Below the pieces are notes generated by a model. That model was not told the DNA's origin and searched no databases. It was given only the letters and a program-made list of their open reading frames with translations. The translations under genes were made by a program, and so were the position numbers. From assembly GCA_963729615.1 (NCBI GenBank), contig CAVSOI010000012.1:457236-521235 (forward strand): DNA of 64,000 nucleotides. The letters are read 5' to 3'. Shown here piece by piece: positions 7,964 through 60,633 of the stretch. This DNA is from an uncultured Cytophagales bacterium. Lineage in GTDB: Bacteria > Bacteroidota > Bacteroidia > Cytophagales > Flammeovirgaceae. Positions within the stretch are counted from its first letter, which is position 1; every line of letters starts with the position of its first letter.

Positions 7964-7991
7964 AATCGGTTGGTTTTGATGAAGGTTCCAA

Positions 7992-8130
7992 GGAACGGAA
8001 ATTAAATAAATGCGTGTTTTGTCGCAGATTATTTTTGAGGCTAGTCTAGGCAAAAAACACAGTCATAGCAACGCTATGACGAGTATTTATAATGAAGTAC
8101 AGCGTGTCCCGGACCAAAAAGAAGCAAGAG
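7992..8130 (+). repeat. Repeat family A (MITE-like), copy 1
   Basis: Shares ends GGAACGGAAATTAAATAAATG...TTTATTTTTGAGG and ...GACAGCGTGTCCCGGACCAAAAAGAAGCAAG with the copies at 15040, 22060, 24835 and 48594. Confidence 0.8.
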
Positions 8131-13937: not shown

Positions 13938-14132
13938 CTAGTGCATTGAGTTCTAAGTTATGGTTGGTATTTTTTGGAATATTTTTTTCTTCTACAAAGC
14001 AAAATCTGAATGGTTCGGCAATCCGATGGTTCGACATTTCGACATAGCCTAGCTACGGCTAAGAAATTTAATGCAGTAGAAGGAAAAAAGATACATAAAA
14101 TACAATCACGAACTTAGGAATTGATGCACTAG
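13938..14132 (-). repeat. Repeat family C (MITE with ~20-bp TIRs CTAGTGCAT...), copy 1
   Basis: Bounded by ctagtgcattgagttctaag ... cgaacttaggaattgatgcactag. Homologous to the copies at 33356 and 60438. Confidence 0.8.
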
Positions 14133-14602: not shown

Positions 14603-14756
14603 ATAGATGATTGATTGATTAGATAATTTGCTGATGCGATGATTTTAAAGAAACGAAATTCTAATTCAGAGAATTTTTGATTGACAAGATGGCGAATCGA
14701 AGTCTCCTAACTTCAATTTCTGTATTTTCAAGTTCTTTACCTTTATAAGTAACAAC

Positions 14757-15010
14757 CTAAATAATGGGTTTAAAAATTTGATTATCAGCAGGTTAACTGT
14801 GTTTTTTTTAGTATAGTCAAAAATTAAGATTTAATGTATTGCACTATTTTTAGATTTAATTAAAAACTGTATGTCAATATTTTGACTAAATAAAACAATA
14901 TTAAGTTGCTGATTAGCAATTACTTAATTCATTTTTAATTTTTAATTCTTAATTCTTAATTTCCCCAATCAATAATTGTACTTATCAAATATATAACTCA
15001 TAATTGGGGT
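14757..15010 (+). repeat. Repeat family B (AT-rich, ~270-bp MITE-like), copy 1
   Basis: Starts AACCTAAATAATGGGTTTAAAAAT and ends ACTCATAATTGGGGT, with an internal (TTAATTC)n microsatellite. Near-identical copies lie at 15381, 25226, 43391 and 52033 (reverse). Confidence 0.85.
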
Positions 15011-15039
15011 TAACAGTAAAATAATAACCTGCACATCTC

Positions 15040-15380: not shown

Positions 15381-15653
15381 TACCTAAATAATGGGTTTAA
15401 AAATCTGATTACCAGCAGATCAACTGTATTTTTTTTAAGTATAGTCAAAAATTAAGATTTAATGTATTGCACTATTTTTAGACTTAATTAAAAACTGTAT
15501 GTCAATATTTTGACTAAATAAAATAATACTAAGTTGTTGATTAACAATTACTTAATTCATTTTTAATTCTTCATTCTTAATGGCCAGGCCACCCTGTCTT
15601 CATTTCCCCAATCAATAATTGTACTTATCAAATACATAACTCATAATTGGGGT
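15381..15653 (+). repeat. Repeat family B, copy 2
   Basis: Near-identical to 14757-15010. Carries an extra GGCCAGGCCACCCTGTCTT insert. Confidence 0.85.
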
Positions 15654-15730
15654 AAGTTATTGCAGTCTGGACTCTCCAATTTTCCCAACTCTAAAAATCC
15701 CCAAAATTCCCGATACTGATTTAACTTCAT

Positions 15731-17037: not shown

Positions 17038-17332
17038 GAAAAGTCTGAAGTCTTTAGTAATAAGTCTTTAGTACAAAGTCAGAAGATAGGATTATTAAAA
17101 TTGCTTACGTAGAGTCTATAAATAGAAGAAAAAAATAGCTGCTTTCAAAAAATACCAACCAGAACTGAGAACTCAATGCACTAGTGCATTAAAATTGACC
17201 GAATTACCTACGTTTGTTGGATTCTAAAAACAATGCTTCAAATAATTCTGTTTGAAATCATATACTTTTTTCAAAAATCACAAATTCCAACTTTGGACTT
17301 AAGACATTGGACTTTGTACTAAACATAAAATT

Positions 17333-21879: not shown

Positions 21880-22059
21880 GGAGTCAGTTAAGTTTGTAAG
21901 GCTAAAACCAGTTTAGTTATGAATAGTTATGTATTGGCTTCCGAATTTATTCGCATTTGTACCCACAACAGTTCATTATTCTTACTTTTGCGAATAAGTA
22001 GAATCTTATCAAATTTAATTTATGTTTGGAAACAATTTAGCTTAGGCAATACTTTCTAA

Positions 22060-22322
22060 GGAACGGGAATTAAATAAGGTGCTATTTTATTGCAGTTTAT
22101 TTTTGAGGTCGGGTCGGGCCACGTTGGCCACGCTGGCTAGTTTAGCCGTTCCCGGCCGGGACAAAAATTGTAGCCGTAGTGGAACTAGCATAGCACTAGA
22201 ACGCCAGTCCGATGGAACGCCAGTCCGATGGAACGTCAGTCCGATGGAACGCCAGTCCGACACTATGGCGAAATTTTTAACGACAAATAGACAGCGTGTC
22301 CCAGACCAAAAATAAGCAATAG
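22060..22322 (+). repeat. Repeat family A, copy 3 (longest), with an internal 16-nt tandem (GAACGCCAGTCCGATG) x about 4 at 22199-22261
   Basis: Same termini as copy 1. The internal tandem copy number differs between copies: 1 at 15100, 2 at 24900, 4 here. Confidence 0.85.
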
Positions 22323-25225: not shown

Positions 25226-25496
25226 AACCTGAATAATGGGTTTAAAAATCTGATTATCAGCAGGTTAACTGTATTTTTTTAAGTATAGTCAAAAATTAAG
25301 ATTTAATGTATTGCACTATTTTTAGACTTAATTAAAAACTGTATGTCAATATTTTTACTAAATAAAGCAATACTAAGCTGTTGATTAACAGTTACTTAAT
25401 TCATTTTTAATTCTTCATTCTTCATTCTTCATTCTTAATTCTTCATTTCCCCAATCAATAATTGTACTTATCAAATACATAACTCATAATTGGGGT
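25226..25496 (+). repeat. Repeat family B, copy 3, with an expanded (TTCATTC)n tract
   Basis: Same termini. The internal ttcattcttcattcttcattcttaattcttcatt tract is longer than in the other copies. Confidence 0.85.
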
Positions 25497-25498
25497 AG

Positions 25499-26464
25499 CT
25501 AATAATACTTCCCATCCACCAAATAGCTTTTCACATAATCCTCCACGCCATTTTCCAAGGAACGAAATTCTTTGTCGTAGCCGATTTTGCGTAGTTTGCT
25601 CATGTTGGCTTCTGTGAAATATTGGTATTTATCTCGAATATCTTCGGGAGTGTCAATGAAAGGAAATACTTTCAGGCTTGCCCATAGCTTTGAAAGTGGC
25701 ACGAGTCAAATCTAGGAAAGTGCGAGCATTTCCAGTTCCTAAATTATAAATTCCCGAATTTTTTCGATGATTCATCAAAAAGAAAATCACTTCCACCACA
25801 TCTTTCACATATATAAAATCCCGCTTTTGCTCTCCATCTTTGAATTCAGGATTATGAGAGCGGAATAGTTTCATCGCTTCCGTTTTGCCAATTTGATTGA
25901 ACGCATGGAAAATTACGGAAGCCATTCTGCTTTTGTGATATTCATTCGGACCATAAACGTTGAAAAATTTCAATCCGATCCAGAAAAAAGGCTTTTCTTC
26001 TTGTTCCAAAGCCCATTTGTCAAAAATGTTCTTCGATTCTCCGTAAGGGTTTAGCGGTTGGAGTTTGGAAATTGTTTCCTCGGAATCGTCATAGCCAAAT
26101 TCGCCCAAACCGTAAGTGGCTGCTGAAGACGCATAAATCAAAGGAATATGATAGGCGCAACAGGCTTTCCAAATCTGCTTGGAGTAATCCACATTGAGTT
26201 CCTCCAAAAGTTCCCAATCAAATTCGGCAGTATCTGTTCTCGCTCCAATGTGGAAAATGAATTCCACCTCCTTATTGTTTCGCTCCAACCAAGTGAAAAA
26301 CATTTTTCTATCTACAAACTCTTGTATTTTCTTTCCTTCGAGGTTTTTCTGCTTTTGCTCGTTCCGAAATCATCTACGGCAACAATATAATTGAAACCGC
26401 TTTGGTTGAGCCTGCTGATAAGGCAACTGCCAATGAAGCCAGCTGCACCCGTAACTATCATCAT
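25499..26464 (-). CDS. hldD: ADP-L-glycero-D-manno-heptose 6-epimerase (HldD/RfaD), interrupted by two apparent 1-bp indels (about 25690 and about 26350)
   Basis: N-terminus MMIVTGAAGFIGS, central ASSAATYG motif and C-terminus IPFIDTPEDIRDKYQYFTEANMSKLRKIGYD lie in three different frames. At 25690 a T-run (agtatttcc) breaks KPESI/PFIDTPED. Confidence 0.8.
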
Positions 26465-33092: not shown

Positions 33093-33130
33093 AAAACAGT
33101 AGTGAGTAATGAGTAGTTGGTATTGAGATT

Positions 33131-33172
33131 AACAAGAAAAGGCAAAGCTGAAGTGCTTTGCCTTTTCTTGTT
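33131..33172 (+). terminator. Strong hairpin downstream of the flotillin gene
   Basis: aacaagaaaaggcaaagc-tgaagt-gctttgccttttcttgtt: 18-bp perfect stem with the T-rich 3' arm. Confidence 0.6.
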
Positions 33173-33355
33173 ATATACACGAAGTGAAATGGTTTTGAGA
33201 TTTATCTTGATTTAAATTCAATTGCCAATTGCTTTAGCCCGCAATGGAATTGAGTGGTTTTTGAGAAATAAGAATCCCAAAATCAACTTCATCTGAATAT
33301 AGAAATGAAAGTTAAGGAACTTTCAACAGACACAATTGAGGTTCAGAAACCTCGA

Positions 33356-33535
33356 CTAGTGCATCAAATCCTAAGTTCGTGTTGCTATTTTTGTTTCTTA
33401 TTTCCTTCTACTGCATTAAAATTCTTAGCCGTAGCTATGGCTATGTCGGAATGTCGAACCACTTAAATTTTGCTTTGCAGAAGAAAATAATATTCCAAAA
33501 AATTACAGACACTAACTTAGAACTCAATGCACTAG
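33356..33535 (+). repeat. Repeat family C, copy 2; its terminal CTAG supplies the stop codon of speE on the opposite strand
   Basis: ctagtgcatcaaatcctaagttcg ... cttagaactcaatgcactag. The gene stop (reverse complement of 33532-33534) lies inside the terminal inverted repeat. Confidence 0.8.
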
Positions 33536-34708
33536 CATTTTTCTTTCCTACAATAAGCCAACATCCACGAACCTGTTGGGAAACTTGGCAAATGGATTTC
33601 CTTGGTTTGCACATTCAACTTTCCAAATACACTCTCCAGAATACTTTTACGATTGGCTACTTCATCTTTCTCCATCCAAACTGAACCGAGCGGAATGGTG
33701 GCAATTCCGTTTGGAGCTAGTTTTTCACGAATCAAATTTGCCAACGCTAAAGTCATTTCACTTTTCTCAATTTGAGTAGAGTCAATGGAATCCAAAATGA
33801 TTAAGTCAATGGAATTCGATTCCAAATTTCTAAGTAATTCGTAGCCATTTTCGTACTGAATATCAACCTTCGAGTTGCTCAATCCAACCGAAACTTTTGG
33901 AAAAAACTGTATGGAGATTTCTACTACTTTCGAGTCAATTTCAGCAAGAATAATCTGCTCGACCGAATCAAATTTCAATAATTCTCGCACAGTTCCGCCA
34001 TCTCCACCGCCAATTACCAAAGCAGTTTTTACAGTCGGATTTTGCTCTAAGGGCGGGAATTACCAAGTTCTCATGCAGAATATGTTCATCGGCATCGGTT
34101 ACGGCAATCGTGCCATCCAACACGAGCATTCTGCCAAAAGTCTTGGTTTCCAAAACCTGAATTTTCTGAAACTCGCTTTCTCCATCGAACAGCAAATTGC
34201 CTTCGTGCTTTACGGAGAGGGCAATTTCCCCCGCTCGTTCGGTAAACCAAAGCTCTCTAGAGATTTTTCGCCTATGTTTTTTGATGGTTTCAGATTCAGC
34301 AAAGTGTGCTGGTTGGATTTTATTTATTTCAGTTGATGAGTTGGCTTCCAACATCTGAGTTTGCCCACGCTTCATTTCGATTGCGGAAATGTGAGAGGCT
34401 TTGAGAGCAGTTTTTAGATATTCAAGTGCTTCCCAAGGGTTCACGGTTTCCCCGCAAGTGAAAATATCTACTGAGGCAAATCCATATTCTGGCCAAGTAT
34501 GAATTGCCAAATGGCTTTCTTGAATGACCACCACGCCAGAAACCCCAATTGGCGCAAAATGATGGAAAGTGGAGTTCAGAACCGTAGCATTTGCTTTCTG
34601 GGCAGAATCCACCATGGCATTCTCCAAAAAAGTTACTTCATTCAGCAACTTTTCTGAGCATCCGTAGATTTCCGCCAGAACATGTCTGCCCAAAGATTGA
34701 TTTTCCAT
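33532..34708 (-). CDS. speE: Fused S-adenosylmethionine decarboxylase (SpeH-like) / spermidine synthase (SpeE), split by an apparent 1-bp insertion in a C-run about 34035-34045
   Basis: N-terminal ...[16 protein letters not shown] (AdoMetDC) then ...WFTE...[20 protein letters not shown]...HENLVIPA. The other frame continues [25 protein letters not shown]...DSID (the spermidine synthase motifs). Confidence 0.75.
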
Positions 34709-34779: not shown

Positions 34780-35378
34780 CTAGAAGAAGAAACCTGCTTC
34801 AATCGCAAAGAAATGGAGTTTCAAATCTACTGCATCAGCATCTGATACATCAGTAAGTCCTCTATTGTAAGAAAGCCCTAAAGTAACCGTGCCAAAATCG
34901 AATTCTTTTTCTCCTGCCACTCCAAATTTCATAGTGCTCCCAATAGAATTATAGGCATCTTTCGCATCCACATTATCGTCATTTGTTTTGCTTCTGGCAG
35001 AAACATATAAATCTAGCGTGGGTCCAACAAAGCCACTTATGAATAATCCATCGCTGATTTCGTTGGTACGCAAAGAAACTCCGATAGGAATTTCGACAGC
35101 AGAAAGAACTCCTTTTCCACCATCATCTTTGTCGCCAAAGGCTTTCGTAGTAAGTGCAATCCCAGTTTGGATTCCGTAATTCTCGCTGAACCCTTGTCTA
35201 GAGGTTTATGGCAATTCGAGTGCCGACTCCGTTTTCTCCATCTGACTTTCTGCCACCAACCTCGCCAACAGCAGAATTGAAAGTAGGACCGAAACTAACA
35301 CCTACTCTTGTACCTTCTTGTGCAAAAAGTTCTTGTCCGAAAGTGAAAAACAAGGCAACTAATAGTAATTTTTTCATC
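34780..35378 (-). CDS. Small outer-membrane beta-barrel protein (OmpW/OMP_b-brl-like), split by an indel about 35195-35205
   Basis: Signal peptide MKKLLLVALFFTFGQELFAQ in one frame. The other frame gives ...SENYGIQTGIALTTKAFG... and ends LHFFAIEAGFFF, a terminal aromatic typical of OM barrels. Confidence 0.55.
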
Positions 35379-43390: not shown

Positions 43391-43661
43391 AACCCGAATA
43401 ATGAGTTTAAAAAATTGATTATCAGTAGGTTAACTATAATTTTTTTAGTGTGGTCAAAAATTAAGATTTAATATATTGCACTATTTTTTGATTTAATTAA
43501 AAACCGTATGTCAATAGTTTGGCTAAATAAAATAACATAATTTACTGATTAACAATTACTTAAGTCATTTTTAATTCTTCATTCTTAATGGCCAGGCCAC
43601 CCTGTCTTAATTTCCCCAATCAATAATTGTACTTATCAAATACACAACTCATAATTGGGGT
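43391..43661 (+). repeat. Repeat family B, copy 4
   Basis: aacccgaataatgagtttaaaaaattg ... ctcataattggggt. Contains the GGCCAGGCCACCCTGTCTT insert. Confidence 0.85.
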
Positions 43662-43714
43662 ATTTAGGTTTCCCCAAAATTAAATGCGGATGAGGCAGTT
43701 GCTGTACTCGCAAC

Positions 43715-48345: not shown

Positions 48346-48593
48346 ACAAATTACTGTTCACAATCTCCAACCGTATTCTTCACAAAAAATTAAATTCCTA
48401 TTTAGGTATATGACGATTTTGAAGTTTACAAAATGAATTTGCTTCCCTCCAAAGTTAGAGTATGTTTGAATCGACTTAATTTTTGGTTTCTACGGCTTTT
48501 CAAAAATACCTGCTTCGTTGTTTTCTCCCCGAATAGCTTTGTGTTTTGAAAATCTCGTAAGATTCCCAAAAAATCAATCCAAATATACTCTTA

Positions 48594-48764
48594 GGAATGA
48601 GGATTAAATAAATGCGTGTTTTGTCTCAGTTTATTTTTGAGGTCGGGTCGAGCCAGATTGGCTACGCTAGCTAGTCAAGGCAAAATTTGCAGTCATAGCA
48701 CCGCTATGCGAGATTTTTAACGAAGAATAGACAGCGTGTCCCGAACCAAAAAGAAACAAGGGGC
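48594..48764 (+). repeat. Repeat family A, copy 5
   Basis: ggaatgaggattaaataaatgcgtgttttgtctcagtttatttttgaggtcgggtcgagcc ... gacagcgtgtcccgaaccaaaaagaaacaagg. Confidence 0.8.
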
Positions 48765-55490: not shown

Positions 55491-56444
55491 ATGGACAAAA
55501 TATTAGTGATTGGCGCTTGCGGGCAACTCGGCTCAGAGCTTACCTATTCTTTAAGAACTATTTTTGGAGAGCAGAATGTAGTGGCTTCCGACCTTTTCCA
55601 ACCAAAAAATGAGCTTGCCGAAGGACTTTTTGAGCAGTTGGATGTAACAGATGGGAAAAGATTGGATGAAATAGTTCGGAAACATAAAATTACCCAAATC
55701 TATCATTTGGCGGCCATTCTTTCTGCCAAGGGCGAGCAGAACCCACTTTGGGCTTGGCAAATTAATATGGATGGCTTACTGAACGTGTTGGAAATTGCCA
55801 AAGCTCAGAAAATGGATAAGGTCTATTGGCCGAGTTCCATTGCTGCTTTCGGGCAAAGCACCCCAAAATCGAACACCCCACAAACCACGGTAATGGAACC
55901 AAGTACGGTTTACGGAATCAGTAAGTTGACGGGCGAACTTTGGTGCCAATATTATTTCGATAAATACGGGTTAGATACGAGGAGTCTGCGTTATCCAGGC
56001 TTGATTGGCTACAAATCTTTGCCAGGAGGTGGAACTACGGATTATGCGGTGGACATTTACCACAAGGCACTTGAAGGCGAGAAATTTGAGTGTTTCCTCT
56101 CCGAAAATACTTATTTGCCCATGATGTATATGCCCGATGCGCTGAAGGCAACCATAGATATTATGCAAGCAGAAGCGAGTGAAATCCAACTGCATACCTC
56201 TTACAATGTGTCTGGAATGAGTTTTTCGCCAAAGGAAATGGCAGATTCAATCCGAAAGGAGATTCCAAATTTTGAGATAAGCTACCAGCCAGATTTCCGT
56301 CAAGCCATTGCCAACAGCTGGCCAAGCAGTTTGGATGATTCAAAGGCGAGAACTGATTGGGGTTGGCAACCGAAATTTGACCTCGAAGCGATGACGAAAG
56401 ATATGCTAGAGAACTTGAGGACAATGAAGGCGATTTCGGCTTAA
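55491..56444 (+). CDS. NAD-dependent epimerase/dehydratase family protein, L-threonine 3-dehydrogenase-like
   Basis: ILVIGACGQLGSEL (Rossmann) ... YGISK (catalytic YxxxK). Size 317 aa. Confidence 0.65.
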   Translation: MDKILVIGACGQLGSELTYSLRTIFGEQNVVASDLFQPKNELAEGLFEQLDVTDGKRLDEIVRKHKITQIYHLAAILSAKGEQNPLWAWQINMDGLLNVLEIAKAQKMDKVYWPSSIAAFGQSTPKSNTPQTTVMEPSTVYGISKLTGELWCQYYFDKYGLDTRSLRYPGLIGYKSLPGGGTTDYAVDIYHKALEGEKFECFLSENTYLPMMYMPDALKATIDIMQAEASEIQLHTSYNVSGMSFSPKEMADSIRKEIPNFEISYQPDFRQAIANSWPSSLDDSKARTDWGWQPKFDLEAMTKDMLENLRTMKAISA

Positions 56445-56466
56445 AGTAAATGGAAACAGTAAATAG

Positions 56467-56498
56467 AAATGCTAGGCAAATAAGTTTGCCTAGCATTT
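56467..56498. terminator. Bidirectional hairpin between convergent genes
   Basis: aaatgctaggcaaa-taagt-ttgcctagcattt, with a 13-14-bp perfect stem. Confidence 0.6.
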
Positions 56499-56535
56499 CG
56501 CTATCATTATAGGTAGTTGTCTAATCTATTATTTC

Positions 56536-57036: not shown

Positions 57037-57481
57037 TTTCTTAGATGTTTGAGGTAAAGGACTATAAATATTTTTATAAAATTTCTTTTTTGATTCTCGA
57101 CCGTATTTCCCAATTGCCGAGCATGATTACAGTAAGCCAAAAAGAATACCCCAAAACACCATATTGATTTATTTAACTGATAATCAGTATTTTACATAAA
57201 ATATCTACTATGCCAAAAAACAAAAAAGCCTTCGGATTCCGAAAGAGGTTTCGGTATCCGAAGGCTAGCGCATCAACTCCTAAGTTTCTACTGTTATACA
57301 AGCTTCAGTCAGCGTGACCCAATCAAAGACTGATTTCCATTGTTCGGCACAGGTTGGCGATTGCGCCCCCAGAAAAAACCTGCGCCAGCGTTTTACGCTG
57401 GTTCGAGCGTCCACGCTCGAACCAAATTCACACTAACTTAATGGCATTGAGCGGACGCTTGCGCTATGGGTAGTTACCCAA

Positions 57482-57560
57482 ATTAATGATTGAACTATTT
57501 TTAATTCTTAATCTCTCAATCTACAATTGTATTTATCAAACATATAACTCATAATTGGGA
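57482..57560 (+). repeat. Repeat family B, 3'-terminal fragment
   Basis: ...tttttaattcttaatctctcaatctacaattgtatttatcaaacatataactcataattggga. Confidence 0.6.
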
Positions 57561-57575
57561 TTGATACTAACAAAT

Positions 57576-58043
57576 TTACTCCTGCACTCTATATTTCAAT
57601 TGCATTCCGTGAAGGAAATTCCTCAAAAATTGGTCTTTGCAAGGGCGAAATTGGCTTTGAGTAGGCTTTCGGAAAAAAGCACTCAATTCATGTTTTCCAA
57701 CCTGAATGCCTGTGAGGCTCATGATATCCAACATATCTTCCGATTTCAGATTGAGGGCAATTTTCAATTTCTTCAAAATCAAGTTATTGTCAGTCTTGCT
57801 TTCGGCTTTCGGAGTTTCCTTTCCTTCTTGCTTTCCCCTTTTGTCAATAATCAACCCGTTCAGGAAAGAACTTAATTCTTTGTCTCGCAACTGAACGAGT
57901 TCTGGGTCATCATCTTTTTTGAGCCATTGGCTTACTCGCGCTCGGTCGGCTTCCAAATCTCCCAATCCAAATAGCTGAATCATTTTTGAATCGCTGAAAT
58001 CGAAAGCGTAACGGACTCTGCGCAAAACATCATTATTATTCAT
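57576..58043 (-). CDS. DUF1456 (YehS-like) family protein
   Basis: 155 aa: MNNNDVLRRVRYAFDFSDSKMIQLF..., with two repeated DUF1456-like halves. Confidence 0.55.
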   Translation of the reverse strand: MNNNDVLRRVRYAFDFSDSKMIQLFGLGDLEADRARVSQWLKKDDDPELVQLRDKELSSFLNGLIIDKRGKQEGKETPKAESKTDNNLILKKLKIALNLKSEDMLDIMSLTGIQVGKHELSAFFRKPTQSQFRPCKDQFLRNFLHGMQLKYRVQE

Positions 58044-58266
58044 GGTAAAGGAGGGTTTTTTCTGTATTTAATGGGAACGCTGTGTTTCAAAAGTAAAATT
58101 CTGAGTTTTGGTTTTCACTTTCTTTGGTTCTTTTCAAAGTTATCAAGAATGTGTGCAAATTTTCAAAAGTGGGCGAAAATAGAAGAATCTGGGTGTATGA
58201 CAAATTCGCATAAAACTTCAGAAATGCCTTATATTAAGTTGTAGAGATTAAAATTGCCATACAATA

Positions 58267-59676
58267 TTGATAATCAATATCATATGGCAAATATATTTTG
58301 CAAAAGCCTTATATTTGTTTCGATTAAAAAAACATTTACTCGGTTTTCGTAAAATACACTGCAATGATAAAAAAAACTTTAGGCAAAAGATAGTTTCCCT
58401 GACGAAGAAATACCTGGAAAACGACTATTTCGATATTTCCAAACAGCTAGATTCAGTATTTTCGGCATCTGATATTTCAAAGTTCGAGGAGTCCGACCTG
58501 GATTTTTTCGAGAAAATGAATGCTCTGCTGTTCCTGGGTCAATTGGTGGGACTGCCCACGCTGAAAAGTATTCTGACCAAGTTCGGCATTGCCAGCAACA
58601 GGTTGCAGAAAAACTACACGAAGCTATACAAGAAGCTGACTGTAAGCAAGTTGCGTATTATTTTCGAGTTCATATTTGAACAGCAGGCAGTCGGCATTTT
58701 GAGGGAAATGGCTCTGAAAGACTCTTCCATCTGGTCGAAAAAAAGAGTGACTGCCGTTCTGGATGACAGTATTTTCCGCCAATGGCTTTCTGGGTCGGCA
58801 AGGGACGGGGCGCATTATGGCAAGTTCTTCAGCGGGCAATACCACTGCTCGGTCTTCGGCTTCAAAGTAGTGTGTTTTGGACTCTATATTGACGGTATTT
58901 TCTACCCCCTGTTTTTTGATTTCGTCAAGAAGAAAACAGGGGAGCAGGGCAATCAGGCGATTGAGGTGGCAAAAAAGCTGGTCTCCCGCTGGGGCAGGCT
59001 CAAGGGCAGACTTGCCAGGGAAGGCGTCATGTTGCCGAACATCCATTTCAGCTGCGACAATGGATACAATGACGTCTCGCTGAGCGGGCATTGCGAGAGG
59101 CAGGAAAATGGGCTGGTCTATATCAGCGTGCCGAGGAGAAACAATATTTTTACCATCGATGAAAAAAGAGGGAGCCTGACTGAATTCATCGATTCGGAAT
59201 TTATGACGGAGGAACTGGCACATCGGCAGAACGAGAGACACTTGAAAGAAGAGAGTAAAACGCCCTTCTGCCTACGGAAAAAGGCGTTTTACCACAGCCA
59301 GCAAAGGTATGTGACCCTGCTGTTTTTCAGGCTGAATGGCTCGGGGAGGGTAAGCGTCATCTATTCGCCAAGCGAAACGATCTTTGCAAAGACGCTGCGC
59401 AGGCATTGGTTCAGCCGAACCTACATAGAGCAGTTTTTCAAGACCCTCAAGCATGTGCTGAGAATTACCGAGGCCAGAACGAAAGACAGGCACGAGCTGG
59501 AATTCAAGATTCTGCGATTCGCCTTCATGGCTGTGGAGGCACAAAGGATAGTCAAGTTCCTGAGAAGGAAATTCAGTGCATTCAAAGGAAAAGGTTTCAT
59601 CGCCCTGCAGAGAATACTCTGTTTTGAACAGGAAATAATAGACCTTTTGCAAAGCAAAACACATGTAAAATACTGA
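58267..59676 (+). mobile_element. IS4/IS5-superfamily DDE transposase gene in a locally GC-rich island; element ends not resolved
   Basis: Motifs LDDSIF...DNGYND...RRHWFSRTYIEQFFKTLKH (the Y-R-W-IE-FK pattern of IS4-family transposases). The 58.8-59.5 kb stretch is visibly GC-richer than its flanks. A 17-nt palindrome ATATTGATAATCAATAT lies at the 5' edge. Confidence 0.65.
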
Positions 59677-60017
59677 AAATCAAACCCTTATAAAGGAGTT
59701 AAACTCTACAAATTAAGGCAAAGAAAACGGCTATGACTCTGAGAAAAGAAGATTTTTTAGCACTAATTGGTTGTTGGTCTCGCAGTAAATATTTTTATGT
59801 ACGTTTTTTTTGATTTATTATTCTTGCTCTAAATATAATGCTGAAGGATTTTATTGCTAATTCTACCATGCTACATGATAATTTTTCTCAATAGCTTAAA
59901 TTTCAGCCTTTCTACCTCCCCTAACCCCTCCAAAAGGAGGGGATTTAGCTCCTTCCCCTTTTAGGGCAGGGGTGGGGTAAAATATTGGCTCTCAAAAATT
60001 GTCATGTAGTATGTAAT

Positions 60018-60437: not shown

Positions 60438-60633
60438 CTAGTGCATCAACTCCTAAGTTCGCATTCGTATTTTATGTTTCTTGTTTCCTTCTACTGCATT
60501 AAAATTCTTAGCCGTAGCTATGGCTATGTCGAAATGTCGAACCATCGGATTGCCGAACCATTCAGATTTTGCTTTGTAGAAGAAAACAATATTCCAAAAA
60601 ATACTGAAAGGAACTTAGAATTCAATGCACTAG
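60438..60633 (+). repeat. Repeat family C, copy 3
   Basis: ctagtgcatcaactcctaagttcg ... cttagaattcaatgcactag. Confidence 0.8.

Follow-up and report, generated by a model that had tools for sequence, protein, structure and literature searches.

Palindromic repeats that are tolerated in frame inside protein-coding genes are known from Rickettsia as Rickettsia palindromic elements (RPEs). The Coxiella burnetii elements QMITE1 and QMITE2 extend 1 to 50 bp into the 3′ ends of functional genes; in one case a 2-bp overlap supplies the stop codon of ubiB, and insertions in frame within open reading frames (ORFs) occur as well (PMC5896051). Insertion at CTAG has been described for MITEPsy1 of Pseudomonas syringae, which is derived from the IS5 family, inserts at CTAG or YTAA, and duplicates 4 nt (PMC3189936); IS630 is described, in the passage of PMC2170065 that cites Tenzen & Ohtsubo 1991, as preferring TA within CTAG, with duplication of the TA. 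Here, we report a MITE family (family C) of an uncultured Cytophagales bacterium, one copy of which holds within its terminal CTAG the stop codon of a speH-speE fusion gene (speHE), and consider the origin of that stop codon. Unless another locus is named, coordinates refer to the window, the whole stretch of 64,000 nucleotides that was analyzed (contig CAVSOI010000012.1, positions 457,236 to 521,235 of the forward strand).

Family C resembles the Stowaway-like MITEs derived from IS630/Tc1-mariner elements, which are described as inserting at TA with a strong preference for CTAG; CTAG stands at both junctions, and an asymmetric copy at locus L048 (CTAG...CTAA) fits TA duplication in a CTAA target. 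It differs in that no IS630-type transposase with family C TIRs was found in the window or in the other loci examined. MITEPsy1, a 100-bp element from another phylum, has TIRs (GGAAGGTCTGAAAAAGCC) unrelated to those of family C. The QMITEs are unrelated in sequence and host, and several of them add C-terminal residues, whereas the copy at speHE adds none. Two in-frame insertions of family C, at L060 (54 aa) and L061 (69 aa), recall the RPEs; unlike an RPE, the speHE copy lies outside the ORF, and the L060 copy, in an acetyltransferase gene, more likely marks a null allele than an insertion that the gene tolerates.

The copy at speHE is a 180-bp MITE at positions 33356 to 33535 (plus strand), delimited by BLAST, inverted arms, and TIR recurrence, with TIRs CTAGTGCAT...ATGCACTAG; the family C TIR is also written (C)TAGTGCATCAA. 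The left TIR, CTAGTGCATCAAATCCTAAGTT, spans 33356 to 33377 (plus strand; repeat search and inverted-arm comparison), and the right TIR, AACTTAGAACTCAATGCACTAG, spans 33514 to 33535 (plus strand; inverted-arm comparison). The inverted arms are imperfect and 60 nt long, with 22-nt termini that are ∼86% complementary; the terminal 22-mer occurs five times in the window (≤3 mismatches), compared with no occurrence in 100 shuffles. BLAST with the 180 bp recovered two further full copies, both 84% identical over their whole length, at 13938 to 14132 (minus strand; intergenic, 21 nt upstream of a MarR-family gene) and at 60438 to 60633 (plus strand; in a repeat-rich intergenic stretch). The copy at speHE is shorter than these, lacking 16 bp internally. 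When the three were aligned with their flanks, similarity began and ended exactly at CTAG...CTAG, with noise beyond. The preliminary description of the element as a MITE is borne out.

BLAST also returned two partial copies in the window, a truncated right half at 17125 to 17184 (plus strand), in which the terminal CTAG is followed directly by TGCATTAAA, resembling the TIR start, and a solo, decayed left TIR at 57265 to 57286 (plus strand). Over 17125 to 17196, the sequence immediately after the CTAG, TGCATTAAAATT, is similar to the internal motif CTACTGCATTAAAATT or to the beginning of a left TIR; this may reflect an internal rearrangement or a single CTAG shared by two element ends. At least two further dispersed repeat families, probably families A and B of the preliminary description, make the window unusually repeat dense. 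One has copies at 14754-15028, 15382-15671, 25226-25514, 43391-43679, and 57517-57579, and another at 7991-8127, 22048-22319, and 48582-48759. A family B copy was said to end 2 nt before the hldD stop; this was not reproduced at the only epimerase-type (hldD-like) ORF identified (55491 to 56444), which ends in TAA, is followed by a unique hairpin (56466 to 56499), and has no repeat copy within 2 nt of its stop.

Copies outside the window were sought in several ways. A scan of a genome collection with a 17-mer of the MITE core gave 53 matches, mostly by chance, and one true copy (L048). A metagenome scan with a 29-mer of the core gave no matches, and one with a TIR-gap-TIR pattern gave one diverged copy (L059). 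[quoted passage not shown] In total, nine distinct copies of 165 to 211 bp were collected, three full copies in the window (besides the two partial ones) and six elsewhere (L048, L059, L060, two in L061, and L062). All nine start with CTAG and eight end with it, L048 ending in CTAA; no duplication outside the CTAG was seen in any of them. Only the copy at 33356 to 33535 lies on a stop codon. Those at L048 and L059 lie 10 and 33 nt downstream of stops, and the remainder are divided equally between ORF interiors (three of nine) and intergenic sequence (three of nine). A survey of copies for overlap with stop codons, as the preliminary description proposed, therefore finds such overlap to be rare, at one in nine.

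Small size (under ∼300 bp), absence of a transposase gene, TIRs, dispersed copies with unrelated flanks, and a target duplication seen between filled and empty sites identify family C as a MITE. ORFs within the element are all short and frame dependent, and the read-through peptides in P0121 and P0123 have no Pfam match. Elements of this kind are well known, but family C itself is undescribed. No transposase flanked by a pair of family C TIRs was found in the window or in the small set of other loci examined. The sole DDE_Tnp_1/IS4-like transposase of the window (58267 to 59676) was rejected as a parent, having different inverted repeats of its own. It belongs to an IS4-like element (58234 to 59716) with a 469-aa ORF (weak DDE_Tnp_1 and IS4 matches) and flanking 18-nt inverted repeats (TTAAGTTGTAGAGATTAA and TTAAACTCTACAAATTAA).

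The target rule comes from a family C copy that is polymorphic inside a GNAT (RimJ/RimL-type) acetyltransferase gene of a related uncultured Cytophagales population. [quoted passage not shown] The empty site reads ...gcagaaCTAGgttgc..., with one CTAG, and the filled site consists of CTAG, 158 bp, and CTAG, a net insertion of 162 bp (54 aa in frame). Removal of the element in silico, with one CTAG kept, yielded a 178-aa GNAT protein, and this empty allele was predicted before the database search found P0124, a real protein encoded on several contigs that is 100% identical to the prediction over its full length. The excised protein aligns without gaps to PDB entry 1nsl across the junction (KAELGCYV versus KAEIGYWI) and matches Acetyltransf_3 in one contiguous stretch at 74.6 bits, compared with 59.5 bits in two pieces with the insert. 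Removal of both CTAGs, as read from the junction sequence, would shift the frame into a stop.

This filled/empty pair shows that family C inserts in a pre-existing CTAG, which is regenerated on both sides. The polymorphism also points to family C being, or having recently been, mobile in natural populations. Because it splits a conserved core motif and is the minority allele, the GNAT insertion is more probably null than tolerated. At L061 (10391 to 10601), a 270-aa hypothetical protein includes 69 aa translated in frame from a 211-bp copy; no empty allele of this insertion was found. The P0121 and P0123 host proteins, with the element excised in silico, had no exact match in the protein collection.

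Whether the duplication spans 2 or 4 bp cannot be distinguished, because CTAG is palindromic and no autonomous element was recovered. The ends of L048, being unequal, incline us slightly, as a single case, toward TA duplication in a CTAA target; a 4-bp CTAG/YTAR duplication of the IS5 type would require a later mutation to account for them.

At speHE, both junctions of the 33356-33535 copy are CTAG. By analogy with the GNAT pair, the gene-distal CTAG (33356 to 33359) and the gene-proximal CTAG (33532 to 33535) would be the two copies of the duplicated target. As first described, the speHE reading frame on the minus strand ends ...AYCRKEKC-TAG, and its TAG is physically inside the terminal CTAG, being the reverse complement of CTA at 33532 to 33534; the final Cys codon has G33535 at its third position. 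Given the duplication rule and a CTAG at both junctions, the TAG stop would have pre-existed. The MITE thus very probably landed in a native CTAG, made up of the end of the final TGC codon and the TAG stop of speHE, and duplicated it, leaving stop and protein unchanged. The rule is carried over to speHE from one documented insertion, of the same family and in a related organism. In principle, one of the two CTAGs that bound the element could have arisen later, by point mutation.

The proposed course of events is as follows. Family C would be a non-autonomous DNA transposon whose transposase, not found here, inserts it into CTAG, with duplication either of all four bases, as in IS5, or of the central TA, as in IS630/Tc1-mariner elements; in the TA model, the element's own terminal G and C would restore the CTAG. 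The copy at speHE would have hit a CTAG formed by the last base of the TGC Cys codon and the native TAG. The sequence before insertion would have been ...GAA AAA TGC TAG TCGAGG..., ending ...EKC-TAG, and the expected MITE-free allele is ...AAATGCTAGTCGAGG.... The window's own lineage yielded no such allele of the speHE site, and exact look-ups of window proteins for near-identical strains returned no match. The sole change would be the net addition of ∼176 bp of strongly hairpin-forming sequence to the speHE 3′ untranslated region (UTR), separating the stop from the hairpins that lie downstream.

Folded as gene-strand RNA, the element forms one long hairpin (−66.3 kcal/mol; z = −9.8), and the UAG stands at the foot of its stem; an effect on mRNA stability or termination might be inferred from this. 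Beyond it, 2 bases past the gene-distal CTAG, lies a small hairpin, GAGGTT-tctg-AACCTC (33338 to 33353, minus strand), which before the insertion would have been 2 nt downstream of the speHE stop. Farther on, between the convergent speHE and Band_7 genes, sequence reading and a self-inverted BLAST hit located a GC-rich hairpin with T-tails on both strands (33131 to 33162); it is probably a terminator shared by both genes, and a consensus terminator scan made no call there. The spacer at 33093 to 33355 was considered as a further repeat and rejected, its sequence being unique.

The speHE gene (33532 to 34708, minus strand; AdoMet decarboxylase plus spermidine synthase) was defined by Pfam, orthologues, alignment, and dN/dS. 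Its three domains, AdoMet_dc, Spermine_synt_N, and Spermine_synth, are collinear here, and P0001 and more than 100 orthologues have them in one polypeptide. The gene is not a single ORF in the assembly, in which the AdoMet_dc and Spermine_synt_N part (33968 to 34708) and the Spermine_synth part (33532 to 34020; a minus-strand ORF ending ...LAYCRKEKC) lie in different frames; alignment places the splitting frameshift in a C-run at 34051 to 34053 (minus strand), with one extra C relative to L001 and L005. The term "speH-speE fusion gene" holds for the domain order and for the orthologues, but not for an uninterrupted frame in this contig.

This frameshift raises the possibility that speHE was already a pseudogene, in which case the MITE would have been tolerated in a dead gene and preservation of the stop would be irrelevant. 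The adjacent OMP gene also has one extra base, and the deposited assembly's protein calls for speHE are the two fragments. We consider this unlikely, though deserving of some weight. Removal of the one C in silico restores an intact 391-aa ORF, and pairwise dN/dS is ∼0.06, the window branch being estimated at 0.028/0.488 (∼0.057). Insertion of one base is a typical assembly error, and L005, from a different assembly, has the same kind of lesion at other positions. In any case, a dead gene would bear on tolerance only and not on the origin of the stop codon. In the OMP_b-brl_2 gene next to speHE (34780 to 35377), the additional base lies at ∼35198 to 35205 relative to L001 and L005 and splits a conserved ORF; the single-base insertions in the two genes are either assembly errors or very recent pseudogenization. 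An exact look-up of the repaired 391-aa SpeHE in the protein collection gave no match.

The preliminary description had the original 3′ end of the gene replaced or created by the insertion, a reading in which both CTAGs belong to the element, no target is duplicated, and the stop is new. The location of the stop inside the terminal CTAG would fit this, as would the differences in the last residues among three close lineages (EKC, Q, and RIENG). We regard it as highly improbable. The filled/empty pair assigns one of the CTAGs to the host, and the GNAT gene loses its frame when both CTAGs are removed and gives a real protein exactly with one kept; stop and C-terminus would thus have been the same before the insertion. 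The differing tails and the unalignable 3′ ends are what is expected at a dS of ∼1; the window, L001, and L005 cannot be aligned beyond a conserved Cys-x-Lys, nor can their 3′ flanks (dS, 0.8 to 1.1). It had also been argued that the CTAG palindrome guarantees a stop in either orientation, which does not hold, as only one phase out of three puts the TAG in frame, and the target sets that phase. In the phase CTA|G, at L060 and L061 (P0122 and P0121), the host ORF continues through the entire element (CTA-GTG; Leu-Val-His-Gln...), and in the phase CT|AG (P0123) it reads Ser-Ala-Ser.... Since the target CTAG pre-exists in a fixed phase, the terminus of the element can only preserve a stop and cannot create one. 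The related claim that an insertion of this sort is harmless to the coding sequence is upheld, the target being regenerated on both sides.

Relatives that lack the MITE bear on the C-terminus directly. The closest proteins are P0001 (88% identical; 389 aa; ending LAYCQKQ) and P0002 (90% identical; ending LAYCRKRIENG). Loci L001 to L004 and L005 have the gene order of the window (OMP, speHE, convergent Band_7), and no MITE follows speHE in any of them. Their speHE genes stop within 2 to 5 codons of the window stop position (CQKQ* and CRKRIENG*), with TAA in L001 and TGA in L005 and no CTAG there, and speHE and Band_7 are separated by 60 bp (L001) or 122 bp (L005), compared with 439 bp in the window. 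Distant orthologues (41 to 49% identity; 417 to 459 aa) carry ∼35 to 40 extra residues (...YYN..H.AAF.LP...), a tail that is absent from all three close lineages. The comparison of C-termini proposed in the preliminary description therefore came out against truncation of the gene by the MITE: judged by these alignments, the clade as a whole has the short SpeE C-terminus, which the insertion did not produce. That the MITE inserted in coding sequence and cut off this tail, as the continuation of the distant orthologues past the window stop could suggest, can be set aside almost entirely, given that the MITE-free L001 to L004 and L005 stop at nearly the same position, that the L001 stop is just 60 bp from the convergent Band_7 gene, and that tblastn with ten orthologue tails found no remnant downstream of the MITE (best E value, 0.14 or worse).

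The segment YYN..H.AAF.LP, present in other Cytophagales SpeH-SpeE proteins, is missing clade-wide (window 33532 to 33600; L001 4140 to 4170; L005 3790 to 3828), and speHE is under strong purifying selection (dN/dS, ∼0.06) despite its absence. The NCBI metagenome-assembled genome with the closest relatives (P0001 and P0124) is labeled "Arenicella sp.," a gammaproteobacterium; this bin is probably mislabeled, its gene content and nearest named homologues (Flexithrix, Fulvitalea, and Flammeovirgaceae) pointing to Cytophagales.

With the stop of speHE read as a native TAG in a duplicated CTAG, the insertion is an ordinary, neutral one in the 3′ UTR, and the ORF is unaffected by it. Stop codons account for ∼3 of roughly 90 CTAG sites (counted by eye from CTAG and ORF lists). 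The survival of the insertion would be explained by its site, a CTAG at a stop codon being among the few that can be hit without damage to a gene. A more far-reaching proposal is that family C is currently active and CTAG specific in uncultured, marine-type Cytophagales, that TAG stops preceded by C serve as its neutral landing sites, that its one fully open phase lets it persist as RPE-like in-frame peptide insertions in a free-living lineage, and that the UAG at the base of the −66 kcal/mol stem modulates termination or mRNA decay of the polyamine operon; taken jointly, these points seem to us rather improbable. For elements with palindromic targets, such as CTAG or TA, target duplication restores the prior sequence, and a stop codon that overlaps the terminus of a repeat is not in itself evidence that the repeat remodeled the gene.
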